From the NCBI GenBank assembly GCA_038887295.1, contig JAWAKW010000001.1, positions 173,668-237,667 of the forward strand: a stretch of 64,000 nt of DNA, in the 5' to 3' direction. Origin of the DNA: Candidatus Anstonellaceae archaeon (GTDB lineage: Archaea > Micrarchaeota > Micrarchaeia > Anstonellales > Anstonellaceae). The position numbers were made by a program, and so were the translations under genes. Positions 2,526 through 29,064 of the stretch are shown here, piece after piece. Numbering within the stretch: the first letter of the stretch is position 1; every line of letters begins with the position of its first letter. The notes under the pieces were generated by a model. It worked only from the letters and a program-made list of their open reading frames with translations. It did no database searches and was not told the origin of the DNA.

Positions 2526-2530
2526 ATCCC

Positions 2531-2941: not shown

Positions 2942-2947
2942 TTTGCA

Positions 2948-3361: not shown

Positions 3362-3389
3362 GCAAAATTTTTGCACAGCTGAATTAAAA

Positions 3390-3806: not shown

Positions 3807-3815
3807 TCAAAACCC

Positions 3816-4337: not shown

Positions 4338-4367
4338 ACTGGTCGCTGCTTTTATTTTTGTGTCAAG

Positions 4368-4378
4368 ATTTATATAAT
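4368..4378 (+). promoter_or_regulatory. archaeal TATA box for island gene 1 (leaderless start at 4401)
   Basis: TTTATATAA lies about 25-30 nt upstream of the ATG at 4401, the spacing typical of archaeal leaderless transcripts. Confidence 0.5.
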
Positions 4379-4400
4379 TGATTTTTCACGAAATACACTT

Positions 4401-8423: not shown

Positions 8424-8464
8424 ATATTGATTGAAATATTGAATAAATGTGAAGAGGTGTTCAT

Positions 8465-11035: not shown

Positions 11036-11104
11036 CGCATACATCCTAAAGAAATCTCGTGGAATTGATTAGCTTTATATTAATATTATATATAATTTAT
11101 AAAC

Positions 11105-13384
11105 ATGAATCAATACAAGCTAATCCAATCCAAAAATGAAACCATAAAGGATATTTTAGAAGGTATCAAAGATAAAAAAACCAAAGACGATGTCAAAAAT
11201 GTAATCAACAATATCAAAGATGATTACAAATATCTAAAAGATTTCCTTGTAGGTGTTTATCATCTCCAAAACTTTAATAGTATAATCCTATCCCTCATCA
11301 AGCTTTATGATAAAGATCCAAATAATTTTCGACAAAATATCGAGTATCTCCACTCAGTTTTGCTGCAAAAGGATATAAACAAATTTAGTGAAGAGTTAAG
11401 CTCTTTAACAACAAGCACCACTCAGATTTTAACAACAAGCAGCACTCAGATACCGCTGCCAAAGTCCGCTTCAAATTGGTATCTGATTGGTATGTCCCTT
11501 TTCTCTGACAAACCATTTTCTCCACGGTATTCTCCCATGCCACACAAACCTTCCAGAATATGGACACCTTTCGATCAGAGGATGCAACAGATTATGTACG
11601 GAGATTTAAATCAATCCTTCATCCAAGAATATAATGTTCAAGCATGGCCCTTCCAACTTGATTTTCCAGAGCGATATCTAAATCTTTTTAGACCTACTCG
11701 TGTGAGATATCCATTTTTAGTTACTGGATATTTCACGGGAGGAAGTCTCGTGAATCTTAATTTTAACTCAGGTAATATTGATACATTTTCTCTTATAGAT
11801 ACTGCTCACTTAGTCACAGGAGTGAATGTTCTCAAAAATAAATTAATCATAAATCAAGCAGCCATAGCCTTTAAAATGCTTCAAGGAACAACTTCTCTAT
11901 CACGTATTGAAAGGCACACGGATTTATCATCTAAACTGGATCTGCTTTTTAGGAATGGGGAAAAAACTACAGGTCAAATGCTTGTATTCCTTGAAAATAA
12001 ACGTTATGGCATACTCCAAGGCTACTATTACGACGGCAAAAGCTGGTTTGCATCAGATTTGGTCATGAGAGATGGAAAAATCATCTCTGGTGGAACAGCC
12101 CAAGGCGTTCTTCAGGGAGATTCTTTGGCAGGTTTATTTAATTACAATAAGCTAGGTGAGAATGACACTTTCTACGTAGTGCTTTACTCTAATTCTTTGG
12201 GGGCAGGTGTTGAAGCACAACAAAACACCAACCAAAAGCTAATCTCTTTCTTGAAGAATCTGGACGATTTTTCAGTTGAAGTCGGAGTCTTCTCTTTAGA
12301 GAGAGGCTATTTCGGTCAAGATGTTGATAAAGCTCAAGGTGGTATAATTGGGTTTGGCAACCAAAACTTTCATGTTTCTACATTTGTCGGTTCAGAGCAT
12401 TCTGAAGTTAATATACTTGGACTTGCAGCTGCTGCACAACGCACTGCAGCATCATTTTTCATAAGAAAAAATGAGGAAGGGGATATCACTCACGGAAATA
12501 TCAACCTTTCTACTTCTAAAAAGATAGGAAATACCACAATAACTTTTTCATCAAGAGTGAAAGGCTCTAAAAGAAGCACAGAGGGCCAAGGAGCTATCGA
12601 GGTTAGAATAGGAGAGGACGCAGATGCAACTATCATCAGATTTGGTTATGATGGTATCAGTCAGGTCGATTTCTTCAAGCGGTCTGCAAACTTCTTTAAT
12701 AGCCAAAATATAACAGACACAAGAAGCCTCATCAACGCAATCAATGCTCTTCTTTTAGTTACGCCCCTCGAAAACTTTCCTTATCCCTTAGCACAAGTGG
12801 AAATTGAAAAGGATGGAGGAAGAATCACATTATCCAAGTTAAAAGAAGGAGGAAGCGGATTCTCCTACGAAATAAAAGATTTTATGGGCATGAAAAAAGC
12901 ATTTTCCTCATTAGCTTTGACACCAAAGGGCAAAATCCTTAATTTAGGGTTTGATGTTGACCATAATAATCAACTAGTATTGCAAGTAGGCAACAAGAAT
13001 GTTGCTCTTGGCACCAGAGTAAAAATCGGAGAAGGTAAAATAGTCGGATCGGCTGGATGGGAACAAGGTTCTTTTAAGACCACTTTTGGATATAGTGAGA
13101 AATTAGGAGATACATCTGTTGAATCGGCTATGGTTACAGGTAAAAGTCCACAAGGTAACTATTGGGGGGGCCAGCTTAATATTTCTTATAAGATTGATGA
13201 TAATGTAAATCTTGGAGGTTCTGTTGGAGTTCTAAAGTTCAATAATATCACATACTTTTCAGCTGGCAGCAACTTTAAGATCAAGAATGACTGGGGGGAA
13301 TTCCAAGCGGGATTTGTCTTTATGTTCTCGAAAATTTCACCCCTCAACTATTTCTTCTCTATCAATTATGGCTCTAGAAAATAG
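11105..13384 (+). CDS. giant ORFan protein 3 (759 aa) with a beta-rich, beta-barrel-like C-terminal half
   Basis: The C-terminal roughly 400 aa show alternating hydrophobic/Gly-Ser-Asn-Thr patterning (GSVGVLKFNNITYFSAGSNFKIKNDWGEFQAGFVFMF). An AT-rich TATA-like stretch lies immediately upstream. Confidence 0.75.
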   Translation: MNQYKLIQSKNETIKDILEGIKDKKTKDDVKNVINNIKDDYKYLKDFLVGVYHLQNFNSIILSLIKLYDKDPNNFRQNIEYLHSVLLQKDINKFSEELSSLTTSTTQILTTSSTQIPLPKSASNWYLIGMSLFSDKPFSPRYSPMPHKPSRIWTPFDQRMQQIMYGDLNQSFIQEYNVQAWPFQLDFPERYLNLFRPTRVRYPFLVTGYFTGGSLVNLNFNSGNIDTFSLIDTAHLVTGVNVLKNKLIINQAAIAFKMLQGTTSLSRIERHTDLSSKLDLLFRNGEKTTGQMLVFLENKRYGILQGYYYDGKSWFASDLVMRDGKIISGGTAQGVLQGDSLAGLFNYNKLGENDTFYVVLYSNSLGAGVEAQQNTNQKLISFLKNLDDFSVEVGVFSLERGYFGQDVDKAQGGIIGFGNQNFHVSTFVGSEHSEVNILGLAAAAQRTAASFFIRKNEEGDITHGNINLSTSKKIGNTTITFSSRVKGSKRSTEGQGAIEVRIGEDADATIIRFGYDGISQVDFFKRSANFFNSQNITDTRSLINAINALLLVTPLENFPYPLAQVEIEKDGGRITLSKLKEGGSGFSYEIKDFMGMKKAFSSLALTPKGKILNLGFDVDHNNQLVLQVGNKNVALGTRVKIGEGKIVGSAGWEQGSFKTTFGYSEKLGDTSVESAMVTGKSPQGNYWGGQLNISYKIDDNVNLGGSVGVLKFNNITYFSAGSNFKIKNDWGEFQAGFVFMFSKISPLNYFFSINYGSRK

Positions 13385-13405
13385 AATTGATTGTTCTTCT
13401 AAAAA

Positions 13406-13477
13406 TGGACCCGGGGGGATTCGAACCCCCGGCCTCCTGCTTGCAAAGCAGGCGCGCTACCACTGCGCCACAGGCCC
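13406..13477 (-). tRNA. tRNA-Ala(TGC)
   Basis: Manual fold gives acceptor GGGCCTG/CGGGTCC with the G3:U70 Ala identity pair, D-arm GCGC-AGTGGTA-GCGC, anticodon loop TTTGCAA and T-loop TTCGAAT. Total length is 72 nt and a T5 tract follows. Confidence 0.85.
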
Positions 13478-13536
13478 ACGCCAACGCTTGTTTTTTTCAA
13501 GGAAGCATTTTTATATCGAACTGCCAAACTTAACGC

Positions 13537-13872
13537 ATGGGCCTGCTTGAGCTAATCAAGAATATGCTTAAGCCTAAGTCCCCACTTGCTTCTCAGAAGG
13601 CAAAATGCCCAAAATGCTCTGCCCAGCTTGAGCTTGGCGCAGAGCGCTGCCCTTCATGCGGAACTCATGTAGAATCGATGTTTGCTATTTCCTGCCCGAA
13701 ATGCAAGGAGCAAAATCCACTTAGGGCAGAAAAATGCTCCAAATGTGGTTTTTCGTTTGTCCAGCAACAGGTAGGAACCGGGAAAGTGATTTATATCTGC
13801 CCAATTTGCGGATACCGCGCCGATTATTTCATGCTCTCATGCCCATCTTGCGGAGTAAAATTTGTAAGCTAA
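13537..13872 (+). CDS. multi-zinc-ribbon protein
   Basis: Four CxxC...CxxC pairs (CPKCSA..CPSCG, CPKCKE..CSKCG, CPICG..CPSCG). Confidence 0.55.
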   Translation: MGLLELIKNMLKPKSPLASQKAKCPKCSAQLELGAERCPSCGTHVESMFAISCPKCKEQNPLRAEKCSKCGFSFVQQQVGTGKVIYICPICGYRADYFMLSCPSCGVKFVS

Positions 13873-14273
13873 TCTGTAAGCCTAAATTTGTAGCCGTAGT
13901 GTATAAGACCTTCTTCAGAATCTTCAATTATTCTTCTGAATACCATTTCAACTTTATCGCCTATACTGACTTTTTTTGCTCCTACAATTTGGGCAGTGAG
14001 CCGCGGTCCCTCATCAAGCTCTACAATTGCCAAAATATAGGGCACTTGCTTTTCAAATCCAGCAGGCCCGGCGGTCACCTCCGTAAAGGAATATATTTTG
14101 CCTTTGCCTGAAAATTGCCTGCTTTCTATTTTTCCTTTCCTGCGGCACTTTGGGCAAAGCTTTCTTGCAGGAAAGTAGCTGGTTTGACAATTTCGACAAT
14201 ATGTACCAACCAGCCTATATCTTTCTGGTATCCTTCTCCAAGTTATTGCAAGGTTTTCAGATGGCAAGTTCAT
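13869..14273 (-). CDS. DUF35 OB-fold/Zn-ribbon protein, the thiolase/HMG-CoA synthase partner
   Basis: CxxC..CxxC ribbon (CRNCQ...CPKCRRKG) and position downstream of the thiolase form the archaeal DUF35-thiolase-HMGCS trio. Confidence 0.75.
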   Translation of the reverse strand: MNLPSENLAITWRRIPERYRLVGTYCRNCQTSYFPARKLCPKCRRKGKIESRQFSGKGKIYSFTEVTAGPAGFEKQVPYILAIVELDEGPRLTAQIVGAKKVSIGDKVEMVFRRIIEDSEEGLIHYGYKFRLTD

Positions 14274-14278
14274 CCCCC

Positions 14279-15439
14279 CTAAACTTTCCTGAATATATGC
14301 ACCACCGCAGTAGCTCCAGAGCCGCCTACATTATGAGTCATGCCAATTTCACAGTCTTTTACCTGCCTGCCTTCTGCCTTTCCACGAAGCTGCCAGACAA
14401 TTTCCACAGCTTGCTTTACCCCAGTTGCGCCAACCGGGTGGCCACAACCTTTCAGCCCTCCAGAGGTGTTTACTGAAATTTCTGCATTAAGTGCAGTTTT
14501 TCCCTCCTCTGATGCCTTCCCGCCTTCACCCTTTGGGAAAAAGCCCAGATCCTCTATTGCCATAATTTCAGCAATCGTAAAGCAGTCATGAACTTCTACA
14601 ACATCAATGTCTTTTGGGGAGAGTCCGGCTTGCTGATAAGCTTTTTTTGCTGCAATTTTCGTGCTTTTTAGCTCAGTCATGTTTTCCCTTGAGTGAAGTG
14701 CAAGCACATCCGAGGCCTGTGCAGATGCGACTATTTCAATCGGCTGCTCACAGTAGCGCTTTGCCTTTTCAAGCGGCATCAGAATTGCTGCTGCAGCGCC
14801 ATCTGTAATTGGCGAGCAGTCAAAAAGCTTCAGCGGAGATGCAATGTATTTACTTTTCATCACAGTTTCCACAGTTATCTCATTTTGGAAATGAGCATAC
14901 TTGTTTTTGGCGGCGTTTGCATGGTTTTTAACTGCAACTGAAGCCATCTGCTCTTCTGTTGTGCCGTACTGGTGCATGTGCCTTCGTGCCATAAGAGCAT
15001 AAATTGCAGGAAAAGTTGCTCCCATAAAAAGCTCCCATTCTTGGTCACCTGCTCCACCAAGTGCAGAGGCAACTTCATTGCCAGGGGTGTCAGTCATCTT
15101 CTCCACCCCACCAACCACTACGCAATCATGCATGCCAGAGGCAACTGCCAAGTATCCTGTCCGCAGTGCAACCCCCCCAGAGGCGCAAGCCGCCTCCACT
15201 CTGGTAGATGGGATGGGAGTAAGACCCATAAAGTCTGCCACCAATGCACCTACATGCTCCTGCCCAACCAGTGAACCAGGGGCCATGGTCCCAATATAAA
15301 GTGCGTCAATCTCTTCCCCATGAAGATTGGCATCCTCTACCGCTCTTACTCCTGCTTCAATTATCATATCTCTAAATCCACGTGTCCATTCTTCCCCGAA
15401 TTTACTCATCCCTACGCCAACTATTGCAACTCTTCTCAT
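14279..15439 (-). CDS. acetyl-CoA acetyltransferase (archaeal thiolase)
   Basis: Thiolase-fold motifs (ACASGG-like EAACASGGVA, CSPITDGAAA, GHPVGATG). Confidence 0.85.
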   Translation of the reverse strand: MRRVAIVGVGMSKFGEEWTRGFRDMIIEAGVRAVEDANLHGEEIDALYIGTMAPGSLVGQEHVGALVADFMGLTPIPSTRVEAACASGGVALRTGYLAVASGMHDCVVVGGVEKMTDTPGNEVASALGGAGDQEWELFMGATFPAIYALMARRHMHQYGTTEEQMASVAVKNHANAAKNKYAHFQNEITVETVMKSKYIASPLKLFDCSPITDGAAAAILMPLEKAKRYCEQPIEIVASAQASDVLALHSRENMTELKSTKIAAKKAYQQAGLSPKDIDVVEVHDCFTIAEIMAIEDLGFFPKGEGGKASEEGKTALNAEISVNTSGGLKGCGHPVGATGVKQAVEIVWQLRGKAEGRQVKDCEIGMTHNVGGSGATAVVHIFRKV

Positions 15440-15443
15440 ACAA

Positions 15444-16499
15444 TCACATTTTCAGCTTGCCCCTATTCTTTACATAAATTGCATAATCCACATACTCTTT
15501 GTCATTTATGTAGTCTTGTAGGCGCCTTCCTTTGTACGCTTCCCTTTTCTGCAGAAGTACATCAGTTACCCGAATAGCAAAGGCATCTGAGCCTGCACCT
15601 GAGCCAAAAGAAGTCAGAAGAATTCTCTGCTCAGGCTTTGCAATATCCAACACACCGCAAAGCCCAATCAAAGAAGCGCCAGAATACGTGTTGCCAATTA
15701 TCGGAGTGAAAAGCCCTGGCTTGACTTTTTCTGGGTCAATTCCCATCTTTTTTGCCGCCTCAATTGGGAATTTGCCGTTTGGCTGGTGAAATACGAAATA
15801 ATCATAGTCTGCAGCCCGCGTCCCGGTTTTTTCAAAAAGCGCCTGCGTAGCCCCCATCACATGCCTAAAGTAAGCAGGCGCACCGGTGAACCTGCCCCCA
15901 TGAGAAGGGTAGTGCGCATGCTGCTTCCTCCAAAAATCAGGGGTATCAGTGGTAAATGAGCACGTAGCCTCAATTTCTGCAACAATCTCCTCCTTTTGTT
16001 GCCCAATCAGGAACGCGGCTGCCCCTGCAGAGGCAGTGTATTCCAGCGCATCGCCAGGTCTTCCTTGTGCTGTATCCGAGCCAATCGCAAGCCCGTATCG
16101 TATCATCCCTGCGCCCACCATGCCCATGCACATCTGAATGCCAGCGGTCCCTGCCTTGCAGGCAAACTCCAAATCCGCTGCGGTAAGGTTGGGGGTTGCG
16201 CCTATGGCTTCTGCCACAATAGTTGCAGTCGGCTTGACCGCATAAGGGTGAGATTCAGAACCAACATATACCGCGCCAATGGCTTCAGGATCCAGTTTTG
16301 CAAAAGCAATTGCATTTCTTGCAGCCTCCACTGCAAGGGTGGCAGCATCCTCGTCTATAGCTGGAACTGATTTTTCCATCACCCCAAGACCCTTGGTTAT
16401 CCGCTCTCCCTCTTCTCCCCATACACGGGCTATCTCTTCAGTCTTTATTCTGTATTTTGGAACATATGCACCATATCCTACTATTCCAACTGATTGCAT
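15444..16499 (-). CDS. hydroxymethylglutaryl-CoA synthase (archaeal type)
   Basis: The N-terminus [15 protein letters not shown] and the length are typical; it is coupled to the thiolase by a 5-nt gap. Confidence 0.85.
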
Positions 16500-16507
16500 G
16501 GTTTCAC

Positions 16508-17191
16508 CTAAATTTTGTTGAGCACTTCCTTTATTTTCGGAACCTCCATTGAAGTGATTATTACAGGTATCTGCTCTCGCTCTGCTATCTTTATTGCAAG
16601 TGGGTCAACCTCCTTTATCCCGTGGAGGACCACCACCGAAGGCTTCATGGGAGTCACCCTAATCACCACCATCGGGCTCCTCCCTGTGGAAACCTGGGTA
16701 AATATAAATGCCCTCTCTGACATTGTCCCATAAAGCTTTGGAAATTGGCTGTAGGGCATCTCCAAAATTATCTTCAAACTCTCCATCAAGGTGTATCCAT
16801 AAAGCTTTTTGACCTTCATCAGCTCCTCGTTTGCCACCACGCTTCCGCCTATCAGCTTTTGGAAATCAATTGCAGAGATGCTAGTTGCAAATTCATGAAG
16901 CTCAAAATACTGATCGGTTTTGTCTGCCCCCTGAAGCAGCTTGGACAATATAGGGCTTCCGCGCTCCAAATCGATTTGGATAAGCGCATTTACGAATCTT
17001 TTTATTACCCCTGAGCCAGGCGACTTGCGCCGGTTTCCTTCATAGTCGCTTATAGTCGAAGGTGAAATTTTCAGCACAGAAGCAAGCTCTGCTTGGGTAA
17101 TTGCAAATATCTCTCTCCATTTTTTCATGGTGGAGCCGGGTGTAGGACTGAGAGTTATTTCCCCTGCTATCTCGTTTTTGAGTTTTTCCAT
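16508..17191 (-). CDS. HTH (XRE-like) transcriptional regulator with a C-terminal ligand-binding-like domain
   Basis: N-terminal HTH ([21 protein letters not shown]); archaeal COG3620-like architecture. Confidence 0.5.
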
Positions 17192-17293
17192 TAGTTGCCT
17201 TTTTCATTCAAAGCATTTTAAATATTATCGAATTTGAATTTGGCATTTGTCGTATAAAATGGTTTTAAATCCTACCTTCATTCTCCTTACTTT

Positions 17294-17812
17294 ATGGTGC
17301 TTTCCAATCAAGATATCAAAGCTGAAATAAAAAGAGGGCGGCTTAAGTTTTTTCCTCAGATTTCTGAAGATCAAATAGGTCCTTCTTCAGTGGATCTGAC
17401 TTTGTCAGGCACCTTTTGGGTGTTTAAAGGCAAATATTTAGGCAAAACCTTGGACCTTTCAAAAGTTGGGTTTCAGCAAGCAATTCAAAAGCACAAAGGC
17501 AATTCCATAACCCTTGCCCCAGGCCAGATGTGCCTTGGGATAACGAAAGAGCGAATTAGCATGCCAAACGATCTCATTGGGACTCTGGAAGGAAGAAGCA
17601 GATATGCAAGAATGGGGCTTGCAGTGCATGTTACCTCTGCGCTGGTGCACCCGGGCTCCAACAACCACCAGGTCCTTGAAATAGTCAATTTTGCTCCATT
17701 TGCAGTAACCATAAAAGAAGGCATGAGAATCAGCCAGGTAGTGTTTGAAAGACTGGAAACACCAACCTCAATGCCTTATTCAAAATACGGAAAAGTTGCA
17801 AGAAAGCAGTAA
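17294..17812 (+). CDS. dcd: dCTP deaminase / dUTPase-family protein
   Basis: MVLSNQDIK... N-terminus and the SVDLTLSG motif; 172 aa. Confidence 0.7.
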   Translation: MVLSNQDIKAEIKRGRLKFFPQISEDQIGPSSVDLTLSGTFWVFKGKYLGKTLDLSKVGFQQAIQKHKGNSITLAPGQMCLGITKERISMPNDLIGTLEGRSRYARMGLAVHVTSALVHPGSNNHQVLEIVNFAPFAVTIKEGMRISQVVFERLETPTSMPYSKYGKVARKQ

Positions 17813-17819
17813 ATCTAAA

Positions 17820-19598
17820 TCAGATTTTTTTGGTGAGAGAGAGTATTTCATAAAGCAGCTCAAGTTCTTCCTTTTCTAATTGGCCTTTGGCTTCAAGCTC
17901 GCGTGCTTCGCTTGAGACAATGTAAGTGTAAAGGTAATCATGCTCAGAAAAGGATTTGCCACAAACTGCGCCTTCAACCGAGATTGCAACCTGCTCCCCT
18001 TTTTTTGCAAGCTGAAGCCCTTTGCCTTCCTTTTGTATCTCTCGCACTTCACCTACAATCTCTCCGGCAGCAGTCATCAGCCTCACTCCTTTCTTGAGCT
18101 TGCCTGCAACCACTTCAATGCCAAATATCGCTGGCTTGCTTGAGCGGAAGGTGCATCCCGGAAGCACCAAAATTTTTGCAGGCAAGGGAAGCCGTTCTGC
18201 AGCAGCCTTTGCCTGGTTTTTTTTCTGCTCCTCCACCCAATCCAAATATTCCTGGCAAAGCGAATAAATCACATTAGAATGGAATATTTTCACCCCAAGC
18301 CTTGCCGCCTCCTCATACGCTTCTTCTTCCACCCCAATATTGAAAACCAGCACCACGCCAAGATATGGGTTGGATGAAGCCACCACAGAAGCATCTATCA
18401 CATCCTTGCGCGTTACCTTACCTATGCCTGCCCTTTTTACCTCCACCCCGCTGTTAGAAAGCAGTTTGCGCAGCGCCTCAAGCGAGCCGAGGGTGTCTGC
18501 CTTTACAATCACCCCGCTTTTGCCGGTGTCTTGCAGTATTCGCTTTATCATTGCGTCAATCTCTGCACCTTCACCTTCCTGGCCTACAAGGACAGGCGAG
18601 CCAGGAAGCGCGTCCTGCAGTCCAGGAGCATATACTTTCACCCCGCAGGCTGCAATCACCTCATCTATGTAATCGTACTTTTCCCGGTCGGTTGGCCGAA
18701 GCTTGGGCTTAAGCAGCGCCCGCACCCGGACAGAGGCAGCACCATTTATTGTCCCAAAAACTATCTGGTCGTTTTTGCGAAGCTTTCCTTCATACAAGAT
18801 GATATCTATGGTGGTGCCCAATCCCTTTTCCTCCTTTACCTCAAGCACCGTTCCTCTTGCAGGCTGATCCTCCTTTCTGGAAAGCTCCCGCTCCAGGAAT
18901 TTTTGTGCAAGCCCCGCCACAGTCAGCAAAAGCTCAGGCACGCCCTCAGAAGTCCTCGCAGAGACAGGTATGATTGCAATCTGCCGTGTAAAGTCCTTTA
19001 TCCTGTCAAACCTCTCTGCTGAAAATCCTTCCTCTACAAGCGAGCCTACTATTCGGTATATCATCTCCTCAAGCCTGGCTTGCACTTGCGGCTTTTGGCT
19101 TTCAATTGAGGAAATGATGGAGCATCCGCCCTGCTGGCTCTTCCAGCCTTCCACCAAATCAATTTTGTTTGCAGCAACTACAAAAGGAGTCTTGAATTGC
19201 TTCAGTATTGCCAGGCTCTCCTTTGTCTGCGGCTGGAACCCAGCTGTCAAATCCACCACCAATATTGCAATGTCTGCAATGCTCCCCCCGCGCTGGCGCA
19301 GGTGAGTGAACGCCTCGTGCCCTGGAGTATCTATGAAAAGGAGGCCTGGAATGGTAAATTTCGGAAGGGAGCTGACTGCTTTGCTGCAGGCAGCCTTTAT
19401 GTCCTCAAGCGAAATCTCTGAGGCGCCAATATGCTGGGTTATTGCGCCTGCTTCTTTTTTTGCAACATTTGTTTTGCGTATCGCATCAAGAAGGGTGGTC
19501 TTGCCATGATCCACATGGCCCATCACCACTACAATCGGCTGGCGAAGCGACATGCCCTCACCTGTTTTCCCCCAAGTAGCGCCCAGAATATCCAGCAT
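17820..19598 (-). CDS. infB: translation initiation factor aIF5B (IF2 homologue)
   Basis: GTPase motifs GHVDHGKTTLLD and DTPGH; 592 aa. Confidence 0.9.
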   Translation of the reverse strand: MLDILGATWGKTGEGMSLRQPIVVVMGHVDHGKTTLLDAIRKTNVAKKEAGAITQHIGASEISLEDIKAACSKAVSSLPKFTIPGLLFIDTPGHEAFTHLRQRGGSIADIAILVVDLTAGFQPQTKESLAILKQFKTPFVVAANKIDLVEGWKSQQGGCSIISSIESQKPQVQARLEEMIYRIVGSLVEEGFSAERFDRIKDFTRQIAIIPVSARTSEGVPELLLTVAGLAQKFLERELSRKEDQPARGTVLEVKEEKGLGTTIDIILYEGKLRKNDQIVFGTINGAASVRVRALLKPKLRPTDREKYDYIDEVIAACGVKVYAPGLQDALPGSPVLVGQEGEGAEIDAMIKRILQDTGKSGVIVKADTLGSLEALRKLLSNSGVEVKRAGIGKVTRKDVIDASVVASSNPYLGVVLVFNIGVEEEAYEEAARLGVKIFHSNVIYSLCQEYLDWVEEQKKNQAKAAAERLPLPAKILVLPGCTFRSSKPAIFGIEVVAGKLKKGVRLMTAAGEIVGEVREIQKEGKGLQLAKKGEQVAISVEGAVCGKSFSEHDYLYTYIVSSEARELEAKGQLEKEELELLYEILSLTKKI

Positions 19599-20046
19599 CA
19601 GCTTTCTCAGACAGCCTCACAATCACAAGCTGCGCCACCCTTGCATTCCTGTGAAGCACAATCCCTTTTGGGTTGTGCACCACAAGAAGCGATTCGCTTC
19701 TTCCGTGGTATCCAGGGTCCCACAAAGCACAAGCAATATCCGCCCCGCATCTTAGAAGCGAAGAGCGAGGGAATCCAAATGCAGCGCAGCCCAGAGGAAC
19801 CCTAACATACTCATTGTAAATTATTTTGTAGCACCCCTGCGCTAGCCTCACTCTTCCTTGCTCAAATTCAATCTTTTCTGTTTTGCTTATTTTGCGGGAG
19901 GAATTATCATAATCTATCTCGCCTTCGCTTTGGAAGGCATGCACTTCCTGCAGCGTCAAATCTATACCCGCAGGTTGGACTTGCACCTTTTCATTTATTC
20001 CCTCCACAAATTTGGCTGCCTGCTTCCCCCTCAATATCATGCTCAA
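19558..20046 (-). CDS. dUTPase / dCTP-deaminase-family paralogue
   Basis: The QPAGIDLTL motif and beta-barrel dUTPase-like length; its 3' end overlaps the aIF5B start by 41 nt. Confidence 0.6.
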   Translation of the reverse strand: MSMILRGKQAAKFVEGINEKVQVQPAGIDLTLQEVHAFQSEGEIDYDNSSRKISKTEKIEFEQGRVRLAQGCYKIIYNEYVRVPLGCAAFGFPRSSLLRCGADIACALWDPGYHGRSESLLVVHNPKGIVLHRNARVAQLVIVRLSEKADAGYSGRYLGENR

Positions 20047-20077
20047 AGTTTAAGCCGCACGTTATTAAAAATCTGCT

Positions 20078-21085
20078 TTAAAAGGCAGAGAATCCCAAAA
20101 CACATACAAGCGAAATCAGCAGATTGTCATCTTCGTTTTGGAGGCTTTCTGCAACTGCCGCCAAAACAGCAACCAAAAGCGCCTGCCAGCCGAAAGCAAC
20201 AACCGGCAGGCAGGCTGCCACAAATGAAACACTTCCTTCCACTGTTTTCTTCTTGTTGTAGGGCAGTAGCACCTTCCCTCTTCTGCCTATCAAGGTGCTT
20301 GCCGCATCCCCGGCACCCAATATGAAAATAGAAGCCACTATTTCATCCGTTAGGGGCAGAAGAGTGATTGCCGCAAGAGCACCTGCAAAAAGGGTGATTG
20401 CTCCATGTCCTGGGATAGGAGAGGGGCGGTCAAAAAGCGCAAGGAAAAAATCCGCAATGCCGACCCCAAAAATATGAAGCCAAGCAAAAATCATGCCCAA
20501 TGCAAGTGCTGTTCCCACCACCAACTCACCTGTATGCGCACCAAAAAGCCAAACAAGCGCAGCAATCAGCATACAAGCTGCAAAGTGGGCAAATTGCCTT
20601 GCGTCTTCAGCAGGGGCAAGTGCGCCAAATTTTGGCTGCAAAAAGGCTGGCCGATATATGTATTGCGCAAGCATGCAGGCAAAAATGGATAAAGCAAGTC
20701 CAGCGGCAACTTCAGCAAAAGTATGCACCCCAAGATAAATGCGAGAATACGCAACCAGCCATGCAAAGGCAAAGTAGCCCAAAAACAACCTGCTTGTAAG
20801 GAAAGCAGTTGCAACGCTGAAAGCTATAAGGGAGTGCAGGGAGGGAAGTGAGTAGTCTTGGGGGCACGCTACTGCAGAGGCAGCCTCTGCGCAAGGCCTC
20901 TCCTTTGCAAGAAGATTCTTAAGCCCGAACCCAAGCAAAATTGCAGCCATTAATGCAACTAAAGCAAATGCAACCCTTTTTTTCTCTCCAACTACCCAGG
21001 CAAGCCCAAGGAGAGCTGTAGTGGTTGCCCCAAAAGAATACGGGTGGTGCAAAAGCAAAGCAGTAGCATAAAACAGGTCAGGCAT
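20078..21085 (-). CDS. PAP2-family membrane phosphatase (polytopic, fused C-terminal membrane domain)
   Basis: PAP2 motifs (KERPC..., PSLHS, SRIYLGVHT) within a polytopic protein. Confidence 0.6.
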   Translation of the reverse strand: MPDLFYATALLLHHPYSFGATTTALLGLAWVVGEKKRVAFALVALMAAILLGFGLKNLLAKERPCAEAASAVACPQDYSLPSLHSLIAFSVATAFLTSRLFLGYFAFAWLVAYSRIYLGVHTFAEVAAGLALSIFACMLAQYIYRPAFLQPKFGALAPAEDARQFAHFAACMLIAALVWLFGAHTGELVVGTALALGMIFAWLHIFGVGIADFFLALFDRPSPIPGHGAITLFAGALAAITLLPLTDEIVASIFILGAGDAASTLIGRRGKVLLPYNKKKTVEGSVSFVAACLPVVAFGWQALLVAVLAAVAESLQNEDDNLLISLVCVLGFSAF

Positions 21086-21102
21086 AAATTTGCTTTTGGC
21101 CG

Positions 21103-22221
21103 ATGCCTTTTATTATTTACCTTCTAAGTAGCCTTATGGCACAAAAAAAGGCAAGGCAGGCAAGCTTGGCAGAAAGTCAAGAGGACAAGCCAGACCATGT
21201 GGATGCTTTGGTGGCAAAGGCTTTTGACTCCGACCCATCGGTGCGGCTGCAGGTTGCGCGCGAGCTTGGGAAAATAGATGACCCGCGGGCAGTATTTGCC
21301 CTTATTGAGCTTTCCTCAGACAAAGACGAGCAGGTGCGCCAGGCAGCACAGCAGTCGCTGGACAATTTCAAGGATGAAGAAAAAGAAGCAATTGTTTCGC
21401 TTGAGAAGCTTCTTGCAGAGCGCAAGGAATCCACCCAGCAGCAGCCTACTTCTTCTTCCAAAGTTTCGCAGCTGATGGCGCCCACTATCGAAAAGCTGTT
21501 TTCCCATTACGAGCCGCAAAAAAGGGAATCTGTCAAAAGGAAGCTTTTTCCTTCCCTTCAAAAGCTATTTGGCTTTTCCAAGCAGGATTTGGATCCGCTT
21601 CAGGGGTTGGACAAGATAGGCACAGTTGAAAAGGAAGAGACTCCAAGGGAGGAGTCAAAGCCCCAAAATGCATCTAATTTCCCAATCGGGCAGCACCAGG
21701 AGCCAGCACTTCCACAAAGAGAAGAAACGCCAGCAAAGGAGGAAGAGCTGGAAGAAGCCCCGGTTGAGCAAGGAAGGCTTTTTGAGATTGCATACAAACT
21801 TGCAACTACTCCGGGAATTGGAAAAGCGGATCTTAAGCGCGAGCAAAACAGGTTGCTCTCGAACTTCAAAAAAGAGCTTTCGCTTGCGTTCAAGATGGCA
21901 GCTGCAAAAGCAGCACAGGAAGGCCTTACAAGCTTTTCTGGCCTCAAGCCAGGGATGAAAAATCTATCCTTTGCAGAAATGCAGATAGTTTCAATCTCTG
22001 ATGCAGAACATCAGGAAGGGGTAAAAAGGAAGCCTTATGCAAAAATCAGGCTTACAGATGGGCACAAAGAGCAGGCGGTGCTGGTTCCTCACGAGAGAGC
22101 AGCAGGACTAAAGCCACAAGACAAAATCATCCTGAAAAATGTTTCAGTGGATTTCCTTGTTGAAACCCAAGAAGTAGTCCTGCTCGTCAAGCCAAAAAGC
22201 AAAATCCTTTTAGTCAAGTAG
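21103..22221 (+). CDS. HEAT-repeat protein with a Glu/Pro-rich linker and a C-terminal OB-like domain
   Basis: HEAT-type repeats (DSDPSVRLQVARELGKIDDPRAVFALIELSSDKDEQVRQAAQQSL); an acidic low-complexity middle region. Confidence 0.5.
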   Translation: MPFIIYLLSSLMAQKKARQASLAESQEDKPDHVDALVAKAFDSDPSVRLQVARELGKIDDPRAVFALIELSSDKDEQVRQAAQQSLDNFKDEEKEAIVSLEKLLAERKESTQQQPTSSSKVSQLMAPTIEKLFSHYEPQKRESVKRKLFPSLQKLFGFSKQDLDPLQGLDKIGTVEKEETPREESKPQNASNFPIGQHQEPALPQREETPAKEEELEEAPVEQGRLFEIAYKLATTPGIGKADLKREQNRLLSNFKKELSLAFKMAAAKAAQEGLTSFSGLKPGMKNLSFAEMQIVSISDAEHQEGVKRKPYAKIRLTDGHKEQAVLVPHERAAGLKPQDKIILKNVSVDFLVETQEVVLLVKPKSKILLVK

Positions 22222-22953
22222 CCTATCCTGCTCTTTCATCAGCCTTTTTACTTTTGCAATCCTTTTGAGCAAAGATGGGTGGGCGCTCAAAGACAAAAGA
22301 TTTACGATCTTTTCAGCCAGTCTTGCGTTTTCCCAGAACTTTTCAAGCACTTCCAGCAGCTCTTTCCCATAACCCATCATTACTGCAAAGCGGTCAGCTT
22401 GGTATTCCTCTTTGCGTATCTTGATTTTTTTTGCATGCAAACGCTTCAGCAAGTCAAAAAAGCATGAGGCAAATTCTATCATTCCGCACGCTTTTTGAGA
22501 TATGTTGCCCCTCCAACATCGGCGTATTGCATTTTCAAGCCGCTTAAAGCTCAATAAAATCTCCAAATTTTCATCATCGTTTTTGTCGCCCAAACCTATG
22601 TGTCCAATCTCATGAGCTATAACTGCAAGAAGCTGCCCGTCATTTGCTTCCTTCAGCAAAGGGGTGCTGAGGAAAATGTTCATACTTTTTGAAGTAAATG
22701 CATTCCATCTGGAGTCCTCAAAGCTCAAAAAGAATATTTCTTCTGCTTTTGCCTCCTGTAGCATCTTTTGAATCTCTGCAAGGATTTGCGGGCGATCTTT
22801 GGCGAGGTTTACAATGCTTACGCCAACTGCAGAAGGAACAGCCCTTATTCCATCGGCCTCCAATATAGGTATTTTCTTCCATTTATTTTCTCCTCTTGGC
22901 AAAGTTGGCTGCTTGCAAGAGGCGCTCTGAAGTGACTGGTTTGGCTTTTGCAT
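22210..22953 (-). CDS. zinc metalloprotease (HExxH, M48/HtpX-like soluble form)
   Basis: Motif AHEIGHIGLGD plus a downstream Glu. Confidence 0.5.
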   Translation of the reverse strand: MQKPNQSLQSASCKQPTLPRGENKWKKIPILEADGIRAVPSAVGVSIVNLAKDRPQILAEIQKMLQEAKAEEIFFLSFEDSRWNAFTSKSMNIFLSTPLLKEANDGQLLAVIAHEIGHIGLGDKNDDENLEILLSFKRLENAIRRCWRGNISQKACGMIEFASCFFDLLKRLHAKKIKIRKEEYQADRFAVMMGYGKELLEVLEKFWENARLAEKIVNLLSLSAHPSLLKRIAKVKRLMKEQDRLLD

Positions 22954-23017
22954 GCTGATTTTGTGCTGGAAAATGTTTATAAGGTTGTGTTTAAAAGTGA
23001 ATTTACACGTAAAATGG

Positions 23018-23539
23018 TCATTCCACTTTCCTTATTTTAAGATAAGGTGAAATCCAGCGGCAAAACTCAAACCCAAAAACCACAAGCTTTCCCTTTTCCT
23101 TCTTAACCCTAAACCCAAGCCTCAAAAGCACTATTTCATCAGTTGCATCCCCTTCAAAATAGCAAATCTTTTCATTTTCTAAAACTCCACCAGTGGAATC
23201 GAATAAGCCTGCAAAATAGGATGCGGCAAATTCATTTTTGTATTTGAGCCTCTCCTGTCTCTTTTCAAGTTCTTGCTGAAGCCATGCTCGCACTGCGCTA
23301 TTGTAAAAGTAGCATTTCTTGCCACTTTCTTGATCGTATTTTATTTTGTTTGGCTGGGCAAAACCTTCATCCAAGCAGATTTTGATAAATACCTCGCAGA
23401 GCTGCTGGCTCCCCTCCACTCCAACTCCTTCCTTCGTTTTTCTGCCTTTCCACAGCCCTAAAATATAAGCTCTGGTAGGATTCATCACAAGCTTCATGCA
23501 AAAATAGCTGCAGGCAAAATTAAATAGCATTTTATACAT
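23018..23539 (-). CDS. LAGLIDADG-like homing-endonuclease-fold protein (free-standing)
   Basis: Two LAGLIDADG-like segments (YILGLWKGRKTKEG and YFAGLFDSTGGV). Confidence 0.4.
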   Translation of the reverse strand: MYKMLFNFACSYFCMKLVMNPTRAYILGLWKGRKTKEGVGVEGSQQLCEVFIKICLDEGFAQPNKIKYDQESGKKCYFYNSAVRAWLQQELEKRQERLKYKNEFAASYFAGLFDSTGGVLENEKICYFEGDATDEIVLLRLGFRVKKEKGKLVVFGFEFCRWISPYLKIRKVE

Positions 23540-23558
23540 TTGTGCACATCAATTTCTT

Positions 23559-23825
23559 ATGCCCCCAACATATTCTGAGCACGGGCAAACTCTCCAAAGC
23601 TCTTGTTCTTTGCTGATAAATCAAATAGACTCAGAGCTAACAAAATCCAAGCAAACAGGCTCACCTGCATACAACAATACTCTTGCCAAAATCAAGGACG
23701 AGTTAAGCAAACTTGACTTTTCCAAGGTCGATGCTTCAAATAGGCAAAATTATGAGAGGCTGCTTGCCTCATATAAGCTGCTTTTTTATCTGCTGAAGCT
23801 AAGGCAGGAATATTCGCTCCAATAA
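23559..23825 (+). CDS. hypothetical small protein (ORFan cluster 2)
   Basis: 88-aa ORF that opens a co-directional block of unknown genes. Confidence 0.4.
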   Translation: MPPTYSEHGQTLQSSCSLLINQIDSELTKSKQTGSPAYNNTLAKIKDELSKLDFSKVDASNRQNYERLLASYKLLFYLLKLRQEYSLQ

Positions 23826-23841
23826 CAATGGATTTGTCATT

Positions 23842-24564
23842 ATGAAAAATCAGAGAAATTTTGAGGCTAGCCTGAACATGCTTTGCGACAATCTGCTTCC
23901 TTCCTTAGTTTCTTCTGCCACCAAGTCTTTGTCAGATGGCGTCTTTTTTGCTCCACAGAATCTTCGTCAAAGAATCATGTCAAACGTGGTGATTGCGTTT
24001 TCTAGTCTTCGTAGAAGCTCTATAAGGCCGCAAGAGGTTGCAGATGCGCTTCATACTTTAGGAATGCAAGATTTTTCAGGTGAGTATTTCTTTGAGCGCC
24101 CACGAGGAAGAGATTTCAGCGGAGTGTGGAAGGATGCAACAGAATTTGTGGATTATGCGATAATGTATGGAAGCGGCAAAGTGAAGGAAAGCAAACCAGT
24201 GCAGATTGCAAGAACCACCATCCACGACTTTTTCAAGGATACATCACTTTCAATAAGTGAAAGATATGGATTCTACCTCTCACTTGTCGAGCTTTTCTCC
24301 AAATCTCCAACCCTTGCGTACAGGATAATTGCACAAGCAGACGGAGCAACTCCAAAAGAAAAGCTCCTTAATGCATTTACCGAATTCAATCAAACATATG
24401 GAAATAGATACGGTACTATCTCACTTCCAGATGCTAATTTGGGCGCATTGCATAATGTACGCACTCCATTCTATTCTTCCTTGCAGGAATTTAAGCAGCA
24501 CAACAGCGCAAGCCTTGTTTCACTCTTTGGGAAAATCCAGATGGGAAATTTGATGCATATATAG
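23842..24564 (+). CDS. hypothetical protein; likely the 5' part of a frameshifted larger gene
   Basis: The ORF ends at the TAG at 24562-24564, but an adjacent reading frame is open across this point and continues into 24678..25712. Confidence 0.5.
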   Translation: MKNQRNFEASLNMLCDNLLPSLVSSATKSLSDGVFFAPQNLRQRIMSNVVIAFSSLRRSSIRPQEVADALHTLGMQDFSGEYFFERPRGRDFSGVWKDATEFVDYAIMYGSGKVKESKPVQIARTTIHDFFKDTSLSISERYGFYLSLVELFSKSPTLAYRIIAQADGATPKEKLLNAFTEFNQTYGNRYGTISLPDANLGALHNVRTPFYSSLQEFKQHNSASLVSLFGKIQMGNLMHI

Positions 24565-24566
24565 AT

Positions 24567-25712
24567 GCTAATTTCAGGGTAAATCAAGAAGGTCCAAATA
24601 AAGGAAAATACTCGGTTGATCTTCTCAATTCTGCCCTTGCAAGGCTGAATACTGCTTCAAATTATTACTATTCAACCTTGATTTCAGAATTTGCAGGCCC
24701 TGCTCAAAATGGCAGCTGGATGATAAACGACAGAGCAGTTCAGGATTTGAATGGCAACAATAAAATAGATGCGTTCGAGCTTTTGCCAATATTTTCTGAA
24801 GAGGATTTGAAATCCACTGCAAGCTCTCTTTTCCAGAAAAGATTGACCTTTTTTCAGCAGTACGTCTCAAACCTAAATCAGCTGATAAATAAATTAAAAA
24901 CCTTCAATCCAGACGCCAAAGGCAAAGAAGAAGCAACCTCAAGAATGGCAATTTTAGTAAGTGCAGGCTTTTTTGAAGAAATTACTCAAGAAACCTATGA
25001 AAGTTTGCAAGACAAATCACTTTCATTTAAGCTTGGTGATAAATATTATCAGCTTACAGAAGTTGGCAAGCAGGCAATCAATCAAATCGATGTAAGCCAA
25101 GATCAAACAAAATATGCAACTGCAGTTAAGCAAGTTAAGGACGGACTTGATGAAAGACTTATTTCTAATGGCAAGATGAAGGAAAAGTATGCCTGGCTTG
25201 GCAACCTCATTCTTTTTGTAAAAGAACAGCTTTCTCCCTCTTCACAAGAGCCTTACTGGATTAAAGGCGATGAAACAAAAGGAACCGAGCAAAGAAAATC
25301 CATATATCAGCAGTCACTGTTGGATGTAAACAAAATAAACAACCTTTCAGAAGAGTACAGTCCATCTTCTATCTTTGAGCTTGCCTTTTACAATGCTTCC
25401 AAGCAGCAGCCAGATTTGAATTTGCAAAATCATCTGTTTTATAAAAATGGGAACACACAGACCCCTCGTACCAGAGAAGAGCTTAAAGCTTTGTCTGCAA
25501 GGCTTGCGAACTCAGAATTAAATCCGCAATCATTAATCCAGAAAATCCAATCATTTGATTCAGGTGAAATCCAAAAAGAAGAAAACCAACAAAGAACAGA
25601 CCAGGAAAACTCGCAACAGATTAGCCAAACCATCCCAGAATCATTTTTAACCTCACTAAATGAGGCACAAAGACTGTTGGCAATCAGCTGCAAGCAATTA
25701 GAAAGTATTTGA
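24567..25712 (+). CDS. hypothetical Q/N/K-rich protein; likely the 3' part of the same frameshifted gene
   Basis: The frame is open from at least 24540 (manual translation ...DANFRVNQEGPNKGKYSVDLLNSALARL...). The ORF track shows only the Met-start portion at 24678. Confidence 0.5.
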   Translation, partial: ANFRVNQEGPNKGKYSVDLLNSALARLNTASNYYYSTLISEFAGPAQNGSWMINDRAVQDLNGNNKIDAFELLPIFSEEDLKSTASSLFQKRLTFFQQYVSNLNQLINKLKTFNPDAKGKEEATSRMAILVSAGFFEEITQETYESLQDKSLSFKLGDKYYQLTEVGKQAINQIDVSQDQTKYATAVKQVKDGLDERLISNGKMKEKYAWLGNLILFVKEQLSPSSQEPYWIKGDETKGTEQRKSIYQQSLLDVNKINNLSEEYSPSSIFELAFYNASKQQPDLNLQNHLFYKNGNTQTPRTREELKALSARLANSELNPQSLIQKIQSFDSGEIQKEENQQRTDQENSQQISQTIPESFLTSLNEAQRLLAISCKQLESI

Positions 25713-25978
25713 ATGATGACATGACCATTAAGGAGGAATATACAAAGACAGAAAACAACCAGCTAGTGCTCGACGAATCAAAATTCGAGCCTGACGAATA
25801 TCTTCGTCTGCTTGCTTATTTTAACCTAAGTACTAACGTTGCATATATGATAAACAAATATTTTGAGATATCTCAGTCGAAAGTAATGCCTAAAAGCGGG
25901 GTAACTTTTGACTCTGCAGACCAGCAGACATTAAACGAATCACTCAAGTTTTTCAAGGATCATTTTCCTGAGCAATAA
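25709..25978 (+). CDS. hypothetical small protein
   Basis: 89-aa ORF overlapping the previous stop by 4 nt (translationally coupled). Confidence 0.4.
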   Translation: MNDDMTIKEEYTKTENNQLVLDESKFEPDEYLRLLAYFNLSTNVAYMINKYFEISQSKVMPKSGVTFDSADQQTLNESLKFFKDHFPEQ

Positions 25979-25979
25979 C

Positions 25980-26894
25980 TCAGCTTCCAAATTTCGGTCC
26001 ATCGCGTTGCCACCTATCATCGGGCTCGGCATGAATTAAAACCTCGCTTATTGATGGAAAGCTCTTGCGCAGTCTTGCTTTGACTTTTCTGCAAACTTCA
26101 TGCGCTTTTTTGATGTTCATCCTTGGAGAAAGCTGGATGTGAACATCCAGCTGGATTTTGCCAGAAGCGCTGCGCGCCCTCATTTTGTGAAAAGATCGCA
26201 CTCCCTTTACTTTCATTATTTCGCGACCATACTTTTCCAGCTGGGCAAGAGGAGGGCTTTGGTCAGTAAGTTCAGCAATTGTTTCCTTGCCCACTTCAAC
26301 CACGAGTCTGTACATAAACAATGCTACAACAACTGCGACCAGAGGATCAAGCCAATATACGCCCCACATGCTTGCCACTAGTCCAAAAAGCACTAAGCTG
26401 TTTTGTGCTATATCGCTTGTGTAGTTGCCCAAAAATGCAGAGATTGCAGGCGTTTTGCTTGCAGTCTTTTTGATATACCAAACAAAAACTATATCCACTA
26501 TTACAGTTATTAGAGCAAGCAATATTTCTACTGCTCCAACTGCAAGGACTTTCCCCTCGATCAGCCTCTTTATCGCCTCAATCAAAATCCAGCTTGCAGC
26601 AGCGGCAATCAGCGCAAGTTGAGCAATTGATGCAAGGGCATCATATTTCCCATGCCCAAAGTGATGATCCACATCAGCAGGTGCATTTGCCTGCCTTATT
26701 CCAATATACGCAAATGCATTCCCAAGCAGATCAAATAATGAATCAACCAACACTGCAAATACTGCAATCGAGCCAGTAAGTGCTAAAACTGCTGCTTTGA
26801 TTAAAATGAGGAAAACGTTTGCAACAAATACCACACTTATTGTGCGCAAATTTCGCATTGCAAAGATTTTTGCCGCACAGTATTTATTTTGCAC
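25980..26894 (-). CDS. cation diffusion facilitator family transporter
   Basis: Six-TM N-terminal domain with the HFGHGKYDALASIAQL motif and a C-terminal cytoplasmic domain. Confidence 0.8.
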   Translation of the reverse strand: MQNKYCAAKIFAMRNLRTISVVFVANVFLILIKAAVLALTGSIAVFAVLVDSLFDLLGNAFAYIGIRQANAPADVDHHFGHGKYDALASIAQLALIAAAASWILIEAIKRLIEGKVLAVGAVEILLALITVIVDIVFVWYIKKTASKTPAISAFLGNYTSDIAQNSLVLFGLVASMWGVYWLDPLVAVVVALFMYRLVVEVGKETIAELTDQSPPLAQLEKYGREIMKVKGVRSFHKMRARSASGKIQLDVHIQLSPRMNIKKAHEVCRKVKARLRKSFPSISEVLIHAEPDDRWQRDGPKFGS

Positions 26895-26902
26895 GCTTCA
26901 GG
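26891..26902 (-). promoter_or_regulatory. 3'-flank half of the 16S processing stem
   Basis: gcacgcttcagg here is perfectly complementary to cctgaagcgtgc at 28634-28645 in the 5' flank; adjacent TTGTCTCTGTT/AACAGAGACAAGG also pair. Confidence 0.6.
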
Positions 26903-26964
26903 CGAAAACCGCAACAGAGACAAAAAAGCCTCACCCCTTGCTTCAAGACGCTCCATTCTTTATT

Positions 26965-28577
<1,613 letters not shown>

Positions 28578-28633
28578 CGGTCTTGCAAGTGGAATTGCGG
28601 TAAAGCACTTCCTTGTCTCTGTTTCGTTTGTTC

Positions 28634-28645
28634 CCTGAAGCGTGC
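28634..28645 (-). promoter_or_regulatory. 5'-flank half of the 16S processing stem
   Basis: See the partner at 26891-26902; this geometry is typical of archaeal pre-rRNA bulge-helix-bulge processing stems. Confidence 0.6.
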
Positions 28646-28785
28646 GTCGAACGCGAAAGAATCGCATTCCCATTGAAAGCATTCGCTGATGCTTAAAGTT
28701 TCGGTGTGCCACAAAGGCATCAGCAAACTTTTGCCATCAGCCGCTTGTGGCTGATGAAAACGCGCAAGTGCTATCTTTGCCCAAA

Positions 28786-28797
28786 AGCATTTATAAA
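28786..28797 (-). promoter_or_regulatory. candidate TATA box of the 16S rRNA promoter
   Basis: ATTTATAAATGC on the minus strand lies about 210 nt upstream of the mature 16S 5' end; this position is inferred only. Confidence 0.3.
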
Positions 28798-29064
28798 TCT
28801 TGTCCCCGGTCAGCTGCTTATCTACAATGCCAAGTCCAAAATTTCCAAGCAATGCTTGCACTCTTACTGCCTATGCAGCTGCAGTACAGCACATTAGGTA
28901 CTTAAGGTCGCACTTATTAATTGCCTCAAGAAATAGCTGTTTGAATACTGCTTGCTTGCCTCATCCAGTGGAGGCAATGTTTTTTGCAAATTCCTCTCCA
29001 AAAGAGAAGCACACCGAAGGAAGTGACGCTCAGTCTTGCCTTTCCTGCCAGAATGGACTCTTTT

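Follow-up and report, generated by a model that had tools for sequence, protein, structure and literature searches.

The stretch of DNA analysed here, hereafter the window, comprises 64,000 nucleotides (nt) from a Candidatus Anstonellaceae archaeon (GCA_038887295.1, contig JAWAKW010000001.1), and our subject is a block of four forward-strand open reading frames (ORFs) at positions 23559..25978, together with the gene that precedes it on the opposite strand. The four ORFs, of 88, 240, 344 and 89 amino acids (aa), are all present at the lengths reported in an earlier reading of the sequence (hereafter the original prediction), which described them as four genes of unknown function and suspected that the middle two formed a single frameshifted gene of about 620 aa. 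In GenBank they appear as QXT25_01085, QXT25_01090, QXT25_01095 and QXT25_01100. Comparison with close homologues shows that they are pieces of one ancestral gene of 807 codons, whose frame is broken by three small deletions.

The first fragment (23559..23825, 88 aa) contains ancestral codons 1-85 and then runs through an out-of-frame tail to the TAA at 23823-23825. The second (23842..24564) encodes 240 aa from an ATG, and its frame is already homologous from about 23818, where RSNNNGFVIM in the window aligns with QSNDNGFVMM in P0001, the 807-aa protein encoded by L001 (a Logan contig from SRR27730023). As the original prediction described, this fragment ends at the TAG at 24562-24564, and an adjacent frame is by then open and continues to 25712. 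That frame, open over 24495..25712, is the third fragment; from 24495 it reads ...ENPDGKFDAYIDANFRVNQEGPNKGKYSVDLL... and contains no ATG, GTG or TTG before 24678, where the first start codon, a TTG, opens an ORF of 344 aa (24678-25712), the GenBank start being the ATG at 24717 (330 aa). The fourth fragment (25709..25978; 89 aa from a TTG, or 85 aa from the ATG at 25721 in GenBank) supplies the C terminus of the ancestral protein.

When the second and third ORFs were joined into a conceptual fusion and used as a query against 5.8 billion proteins, only two matches were returned. One was P0002 (709 aa, 44% identical to the fusion); the other was P0001, which covers 100% of the fusion at 94% identity. 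P0001 starts as the 88-aa ORF and finishes as the 89-aa ORF, and therefore all four ORFs are pieces of one gene. The frameshifted gene proposed earlier is thus real as far as ORFs 23842-24564 and 24495-25712 are concerned, but it is larger than anticipated, with 807 aa rather than about 620, four ORFs and three breaks; likewise, the description of four genes of unknown function holds for the lack of any family match and not for their number. From end to end (100% of its length), the gene can be aligned collinearly with P0001 and with P0070 (also 807 aa; QXN37_01850 of the NCBI metagenome-assembled genome (MAG) GCA_038891035.1, here L007), at 94-95% amino acid identity, and its DNA is 97.1% identical to that of L001 and L007. 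A partial intact copy occurs in L008 (GCA_038894025.1, JAWAQH010000055.1, a 5.6-kb contig). Among themselves the intact copies share 99.8-99.96% identity, and with the window 97.1%, so that a sister population, represented by three assemblies, carries the intact 807-aa gene in full synteny. The name of the sister isolate, QQ_201907_bins_174, suggests that it may stem from the Tengchong hot-spring data set of PMC11094006. L008, which also contains the CDF gene, is 99.8% identical to Anstonellaceae sequence; that it was submitted as part of a MAG named 'Candidatus Hadarchaeum sp.' probably reflects an error in binning. Single proteins are likewise found among the more distant homologues, namely P0064 (1017 aa) and P0066 (867 aa).

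Aligned with L001, L007 and L008, the window shows three gaps within the gene and no others, each of them a deletion in the window. The first removes two nucleotides (AG in L001) between 23817 and 23818 (feature 23815..23820); it lies outside any homopolymer and is flanked by substitutions, TTCGC in the window corresponding to TTTACAG in L001, and the junction reads ...LRQEY(L/S)QSN... versus ...LRQEYSLQ in the broken allele. The second, which is the break spotted in the original prediction, is the loss of one nucleotide at 24529..24531, GGG in place of the GGGG of the intact allele; P0001 reads ...SLFGENPDGKF... across this site, and the counterpart in the broken allele is ...SLFGKIQMGNLMHI. 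The third, again of one nucleotide (C in L001) and outside a homopolymer, is located between 25676 and 25677 (feature 25675..25678), with CTG-TTGG in the window and CTGCTTGG in L001. All three lie on the forward strand in the direction of the gene. The frame path across the breaks, 0 -> 1 -> 0 -> 2, agrees with the frames of the four ORFs, and adding back four nucleotides restores 807 codons with zero internal stops.

Since the source is the consensus of a MAG, sequencing or assembly error has to be considered, in which case the genome would hold an intact 807-codon gene and the three deletions of 1-2 nt would be artefacts of that consensus. The fully open repaired frame is compatible with such an error, as is the position of one deletion in a GGG/GGGG run. 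The other two deletions, however, fall outside homopolymers, and one of them is a complex change with flanking substitutions. Furthermore, the comparison with L001 covers 13.4 kb (window 13564-26992), in which gene order matches gene for gene, and frame-breaking indels are confined to the 807-codon gene; the seven other indels of this alignment are three of 3 nt and one of 6 nt in coding sequence, two in intergenic regions and one in the last codons of IF-2. By our own arithmetic, the chance that three random errors scattered over ~12.7 kb of coding sequence would all strike this 2.4-kb gene is ~0.007. A separate assembler also yields the same sequence: L006, a Logan contig of 2,549 nt from SRR27730019, is 100% identical to window 23271-25819, all three breaks included. 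On the distribution of the indels and the identical second assembly, we rejected random sequencing error as the main explanation, and we regard an artefact of any such kind as unlikely.

A second possibility is genuine gene fission, in which the four ORFs would be expressed separately as functional proteins, as the NCBI record implies by listing four hypothetical proteins. The start ATG of the second fragment is a methionine in the intact protein too, and the distant homologue on L002, an ENA metagenome contig, is likewise found in two pieces, of 216 and 709 aa. Nevertheless, the breaks in the window lie inside conserved sequence, the third fragment lacks a start codon across its first 61 conserved codons, and the first and third fragments finish in out-of-frame tails. 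The L002 gene is split elsewhere and by an in-frame TAA, so the divided architecture is not common to both, and the same gene is a single ORF in the 97%-identical sister population. The original prediction had foreseen that reads confirming the sequence, together with homologues split at the same point, would make these ORFs separate genes; the close homologues proved to be unsplit at all of these points, and fission appears to us very improbable.

The original prediction had also offered programmed frameshifting as an option, which would imply a -1 shift at A_AAT_TTG and further recoding at the two other sites to produce a full-length protein. This heptamer (24546..24552, forward strand) is in the zero frame of the second fragment, conforms to the X_XXY_YYZ type and is found within the 70-nt overlap, 10 nt ahead of the TAG; the overlap contains no other candidate for a -1 slip. 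The same heptamer, however, occurs in the 97%-identical intact allele, where no shift is needed, and the break is accounted for by one lost G situated 15 nt upstream of it. The three breaks are unlike one another (-2, -1, -1), share no common motif, and would each need recoding. Nor does the downstream RNA look like a stimulatory element, since the 100 nt at 24553-24652 fold with a minimum free energy of -20.2 kcal/mol (z = -1.1), a value that 28 of 200 shuffled sequences equal or surpass. P0001, P0070 and P0071, as well as the distant P0064, P0066 and P0002, all read through the site unshifted. With the heptamer present but neither downstream structure nor conservation to accompany it, programmed frameshifting was rejected; it found no support in the intact allele, the motifs or the folding, and we consider it extremely improbable.

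Taken together, these data lead us to propose, with a probability of roughly 0.8, that the block at 23559-25978 is one recently inactivated accessory gene, that is, a pseudogene, whose ancestor encoded a protein of 807 aa, and that its opposite-strand neighbour encodes a domesticated protein of LAGLIDADG fold. The ancestor would have been a soluble, mostly alpha-helical protein of a very small, lineage-restricted family, encoded by an accessory gene inserted between that of a CDF transporter and the 159-aa neighbour; deletions of -2, -1 and -1 nt would have split its frame into four ORFs, and the gene, intact in the sister population, would now be decaying in the population of the window. We infer that the breaks leave the 807-aa protein without function. 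The ratio of non-synonymous to synonymous substitution rates (dN/dS) of the 807-codon gene, as measured against L001, is 0.36, and the 12 neighbouring genes range from 0.00 to 0.25.

Several observations weigh against this proposal. A dN/dS of 0.36 may merely reflect a fast-evolving protein, as a trait of the family. The window copy contains zero nonsense substitutions, and the amino acid differences from P0001, 39 in number, are symmetric when polarised with three outgroups, the window state being ancestral in 5 and the P0001 state in 7; the window lineage is therefore without independent sign of prolonged neutral decay. Fragments may still be expressed, the second retaining the ancestral ATG. 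As for the deletions themselves, L006 probably derives from the same library or reads as the MAG, a consensus error or a minority allele in the source sample is unlikely rather than impossible, and the frameshift at 24529-31 sits in a short G-run. In the proposal of a pseudogene, the lack both of an excess of derived changes and of nonsense substitutions leads to the conclusion that the inactivation is recent.

The family to which the 807-aa protein belongs is very small. When 1.84 billion representatives were searched exhaustively with an HMMER profile, five proteins were returned, namely P0002, P0064, P0066 and the fragments P0065 and P0067, the former being the third ORF of the window itself and the latter the N-terminal piece of the L002 homologue; a relative was found in only one of 185,579 species-representative genomes and in zero IMG/VR contigs. 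Neither the fragments nor any intact homologue matched a family in Pfam, PHROG or PADLOC, and a Foldseek search of BFVD gave nothing at E <= 0.001. Proteins of the family contain no hydrophobic segment or signal peptide, and the AlphaFold2 (AF2) model of the 807-aa protein, which is of moderate confidence (pLDDT 69.6, pTM 0.39), consists largely of helices. In the L002 homologue, 44% identical, the in-frame TAA lies at L002 2352-2354, a conserved position where AWS*TGAEYMDYAI corresponds to VWKEATEFVDYAI in P0001. Disrupted copies thus occur in two of the five lineages seen, the window and L002.

In two relatives, L003 and L004, the CDF gene directly adjoins a gene of 162-164 aa corresponding to the 159-aa neighbour, without the 807-aa gene between them, which indicates that the latter is an accessory insertion in the window lineage. 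Its base composition is in line, in qualitative terms only, with the suggestion that the block is intermediate between a low-GC island and the surrounding backbone, although the measured value is lower than the 43-48% then estimated: the block has a GC content of 39.2% (36.7-41.9% per ORF), between 47.2% and 44.7% for its left and right flanks and 35.5% for the island at 4122-13384. The earlier idea of a second mobile or accessory patch can consequently be kept in its accessory part, given the lower GC and the lack of the gene at this position in other Micrarchaeota; the mobile link, considered below together with the neighbouring gene, is unsupported. A divergent intergenic region of 61 nt (23498..23558) separates the block from that neighbour and carries two putative TATA-like A/T-rich boxes, TTTTATAC at 23530-23537 for the forward gene and TTAAATAG at 23520-23527, read on the reverse strand, for the 159-aa gene. 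Both lie ~26 nt from the respective start codon, and it is because this spacing matches archaeal promoter geometry that they are taken as candidate promoter elements.

The neighbour itself (23018..23497, reverse strand; QXT25_01080, 100% identical to MEM4554427.1) had been noted earlier as an ORF of 173 aa (23018-23539) with two LAGLIDADG-like motifs. Both motifs are indeed present, as YILGLWKGRK and YFAGLFDSTGG, and the 173-aa ORF over-extends the start, the 159-aa form being the true gene. It belongs to a family with 61 homologues of uniform length (~162 aa) and 46-67% identity, all the named ones from Micrarchaeota MAGs with the exception of one 'uncultured archaeon'. Modelled by AF2 from a 40-sequence alignment (pLDDT 92.2, pTM 0.89), the protein adopts the double alpha-beta-beta-alpha-beta-beta-alpha fold with two interface helices that characterises monomeric double-LAGLIDADG proteins. 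The motifs, on the other hand, depart from those of active nucleases at the catalytic positions. In the first, LGLWKG-R19, a nearly invariant arginine stands at the position of the catalytic acid; in the second, FAGxFD-x-[K/T/R]-GG, hhalign places the glutamate of a true LAGLIDADG_3 endonuclease (FDAEGG, from L003) opposite the K/T of FDA[K/T]GG. From the motif register, which for the first motif was derived by motif alignment, the protein appears to lack both catalytic acids. Comparison of the family profile with an I-DmoI sequence was non-significant, and only the motif register was taken from it; the profile gave one spurious match (E = 1.4) against PDB sequences, Pfam LAGLIDADG_1, _2 and _3 were not matched at E <= 0.1, and none of the 61 homologues carries a precomputed Pfam annotation.

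The dN/dS of the 159-aa gene is 0.09, and the order 16S - CDF - gene - HEAT - PAP2 - DCD - IF2 is kept in L003, L004, L007 and the window. The protein thus appears to be a domesticated, nuclease-dead member of its fold, as judged from its sequence, and would most likely act as a sequence-specific nucleic-acid-binding protein, of DNA or RNA, rather than as a nuclease. Its gene is part of a conserved backbone proximal to the 16S gene and is unrelated to any mobility of the block. These results bear on the proposal that the block is part of a mobile element for which the LAGLIDADG ORF would provide the homing endonuclease. The double-LAGLIDADG fold, the lower GC of the 807-aa gene and its absence from this position in other Micrarchaeota, and the occurrence of true LAGLIDADG_3 endonuclease ORFs within or close to the 16S gene in related genomes would all suit such an element. 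Yet L003 and L004 have a gene of the 159-aa type at the same backbone position without the 807-aa gene; the uniform length of the 61 homologues and the strong constraint on the gene also argue against it, as do the residues at the catalytic positions, the lack of a Pfam LAGLIDADG match and the lack of PHROG, IMG/VR or BFVD relatives. No integrase or transposase was found flanking the block by Pfam, PHROG or PADLOC, and the flanking repeats are short matches at chance level. The link to mobility drawn in the original prediction was therefore right about the fold and is not upheld beyond it, in view of the apparent lack of catalytic acids and the conserved synteny; a mobile element of this kind seems to us highly improbable.

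Some further features of the surroundings deserve mention. An archaeal 16S rRNA gene, present in full and without a linked 23S gene, occupies 26964-28577 on the reverse strand; in both the window and L007 this gene measures 1,614 nt against a model of 1,478 positions, which corresponds to ~136 nt of insertions, and the ORFs of 92-160 aa at 27025-27507 and 28434-28861 lie in it and are spurious. In L003 (2622-5009) a free-standing Pfam LAGLIDADG_3 ORF is located between the 16S and CDF genes, and in L004 (2174-5211) the 16S gene spans 3,038 nt, encloses a Pfam LAGLIDADG_3 ORF and presumably has introns. On the other side of the 159-aa gene, between it and the HEAT-repeat gene, the window carries an M48-family peptidase gene (22210-22953, reverse strand) that is missing there in L003 and L004 and is a second lineage-specific insertion flanking the 159-aa gene. 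Divergence between window 13564-26992 and L001 is strongly mosaic: thiolase, CDF and the 807-aa gene show a synonymous divergence (dS) of 0.02-0.07, PAP2 and the second dCTP deaminase one of 1.3-1.6 (69-79% aa identity), and this pattern indicates recombination between diverged populations. Finally, two tRNA genes, at 54565-54650 (reverse strand; 86 nt, assigned an 'anticodon' of 4 bases) and 58816-58910 (forward strand; 95 nt, uncalled by ARAGORN), score above the Rfam threshold and are atypical for ARAGORN; they are probably intron-containing archaeal tRNAs.

Distant members of the 807-aa family occur in a different genetic context. L005 (JGI Ga0172368_10004969) carries the homologue as the second of three closely packed genes, which form an operon encoding 1230, 1017 and 1294 aa, and the same arrangement is found in L010, L011 and L002. 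These operons, at L005 2793-13450, L010 1433-5153, L002 1722-4721 and L011 1662-5546, encode proteins of ~1230, 870-1020 and 1294 aa, and each gene begins with MFLFQ. The codons for these residues vary synonymously and a GAGGTG-type ribosome-binding site lies upstream, so that it is the peptide MFLFQ and not its DNA that is conserved; it may act as an N-terminal signal common to these proteins. By eye, the first protein ends in Ig-like beta-rich repeats, and the third ends in a beta-rich, aromatic-terminated region; a protein search with the third gene of L005 returned only itself. The L005 operon is flanked by orthologues of window 1900-4370 and of the tRNA-Ala/DZR genes (window 13400-13870), and its locus is hence the position of the low-GC island of the window (4122-13384), where three giant orphan ORFs of ~1341-1433, 856 and 759 aa start with MFKQ.., MNQN.. 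and MNQY... Homology of the island proteins (1433/856/759 aa) to those of the L005 operon was sought by BLASTP and hhalign, and none was found; sharing a locus without detectable protein similarity, they mark it as hypervariable. The 807-aa gene of the window/L001 lineage stands alone, has MPPTYSE instead of MFLFQ at its start, and lies 10 kb from the island, between the CDF and 159-aa genes.

With low confidence, the 807-aa family may be regarded as part of a dispensable, fast-evolving module concerned with the envelope or with contact to a host, of which the window copy would be a decaying relic. More specifically, and as a speculation that we think rather unlikely, there might be an undescribed, fast-evolving three-protein module peculiar to Anstonellaceae and related Micrarchaeota, in which MFLFQ would be a novel signal governing export, processing or assembly in an apparatus of the cell envelope or of host contact. 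The beta-rich ends of the first and third operon proteins are hints in this direction; the island proteins would then be analogues diverged beyond recognition, and the pseudogene a detached relic devoid of the tag. The MFLFQ operon is the sole element encountered here that could lead to something new.

For annotation, the consequence is that QXT25_01085 to QXT25_01100 represent one broken gene, for which one pseudogene feature would be fitting; listed as hypothetical proteins, such fragments inflate the counts of orphan genes in DPANN archaea. The two alleles document a strain-level polymorphism within one hot-spring study, with a lineage-specific accessory gene being lost, which agrees with what has been described of the dynamics of gene loss in Micrarchaeota. 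The 159-aa protein, for its part, offers an uncharacterised case of homing-endonuclease domestication in archaea and is a candidate for DNA- or RNA-binding studies.

Compared with known systems, the finding as a whole is essentially a real but ordinary feature. Like other prokaryotic pseudogenes, the block differs from an intact orthologue by several small indels that break the frame, consists of collinear fragments, is accessory and lineage-restricted, may be under weaker constraint than its neighbours, and has been mis-annotated as several hypothetical proteins. It differs in that the loss is very recent, with no nonsense changes or large deletions and with the promoter region retained, and in that a single study supplied both alleles from sibling samples, the intact one from SRR27730023 and the broken one from SRR27730019. 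With programmed -1 frameshift genes, of which the archaeal fucA1 of Saccharolobus solfataricus is an example, it shares two overlapping ORFs and an X_XXY_YYZ heptamer in the overlap; unlike in those genes, the shift is unconserved, no stimulatory structure was found, and the gene has two more, unrelated breaks. The neighbouring protein resembles the monomeric double-motif LAGLIDADG endonucleases (I-DmoI, I-Tsp061I and the PI-SceI/PI-PfuI domains), which have an acid at the end of each motif where it has R (motif 1) and K/T (motif 2); in contrast to these enzymes, its gene lies outside any intron or intein and in conserved synteny, purifying selection on it is strong, and it lacks a match to any Pfam LAGLIDADG model. 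A precedent for a domesticated LAGLIDADG fold is the N-terminal domain of WhiA (DUF199), a transcription factor of Gram-positive bacteria, from which the 159-aa protein is distinguished by the lack of a C-terminal helix-turn-helix domain and of detectable sequence similarity, and by its archaeal origin in the Micrarchaeota.

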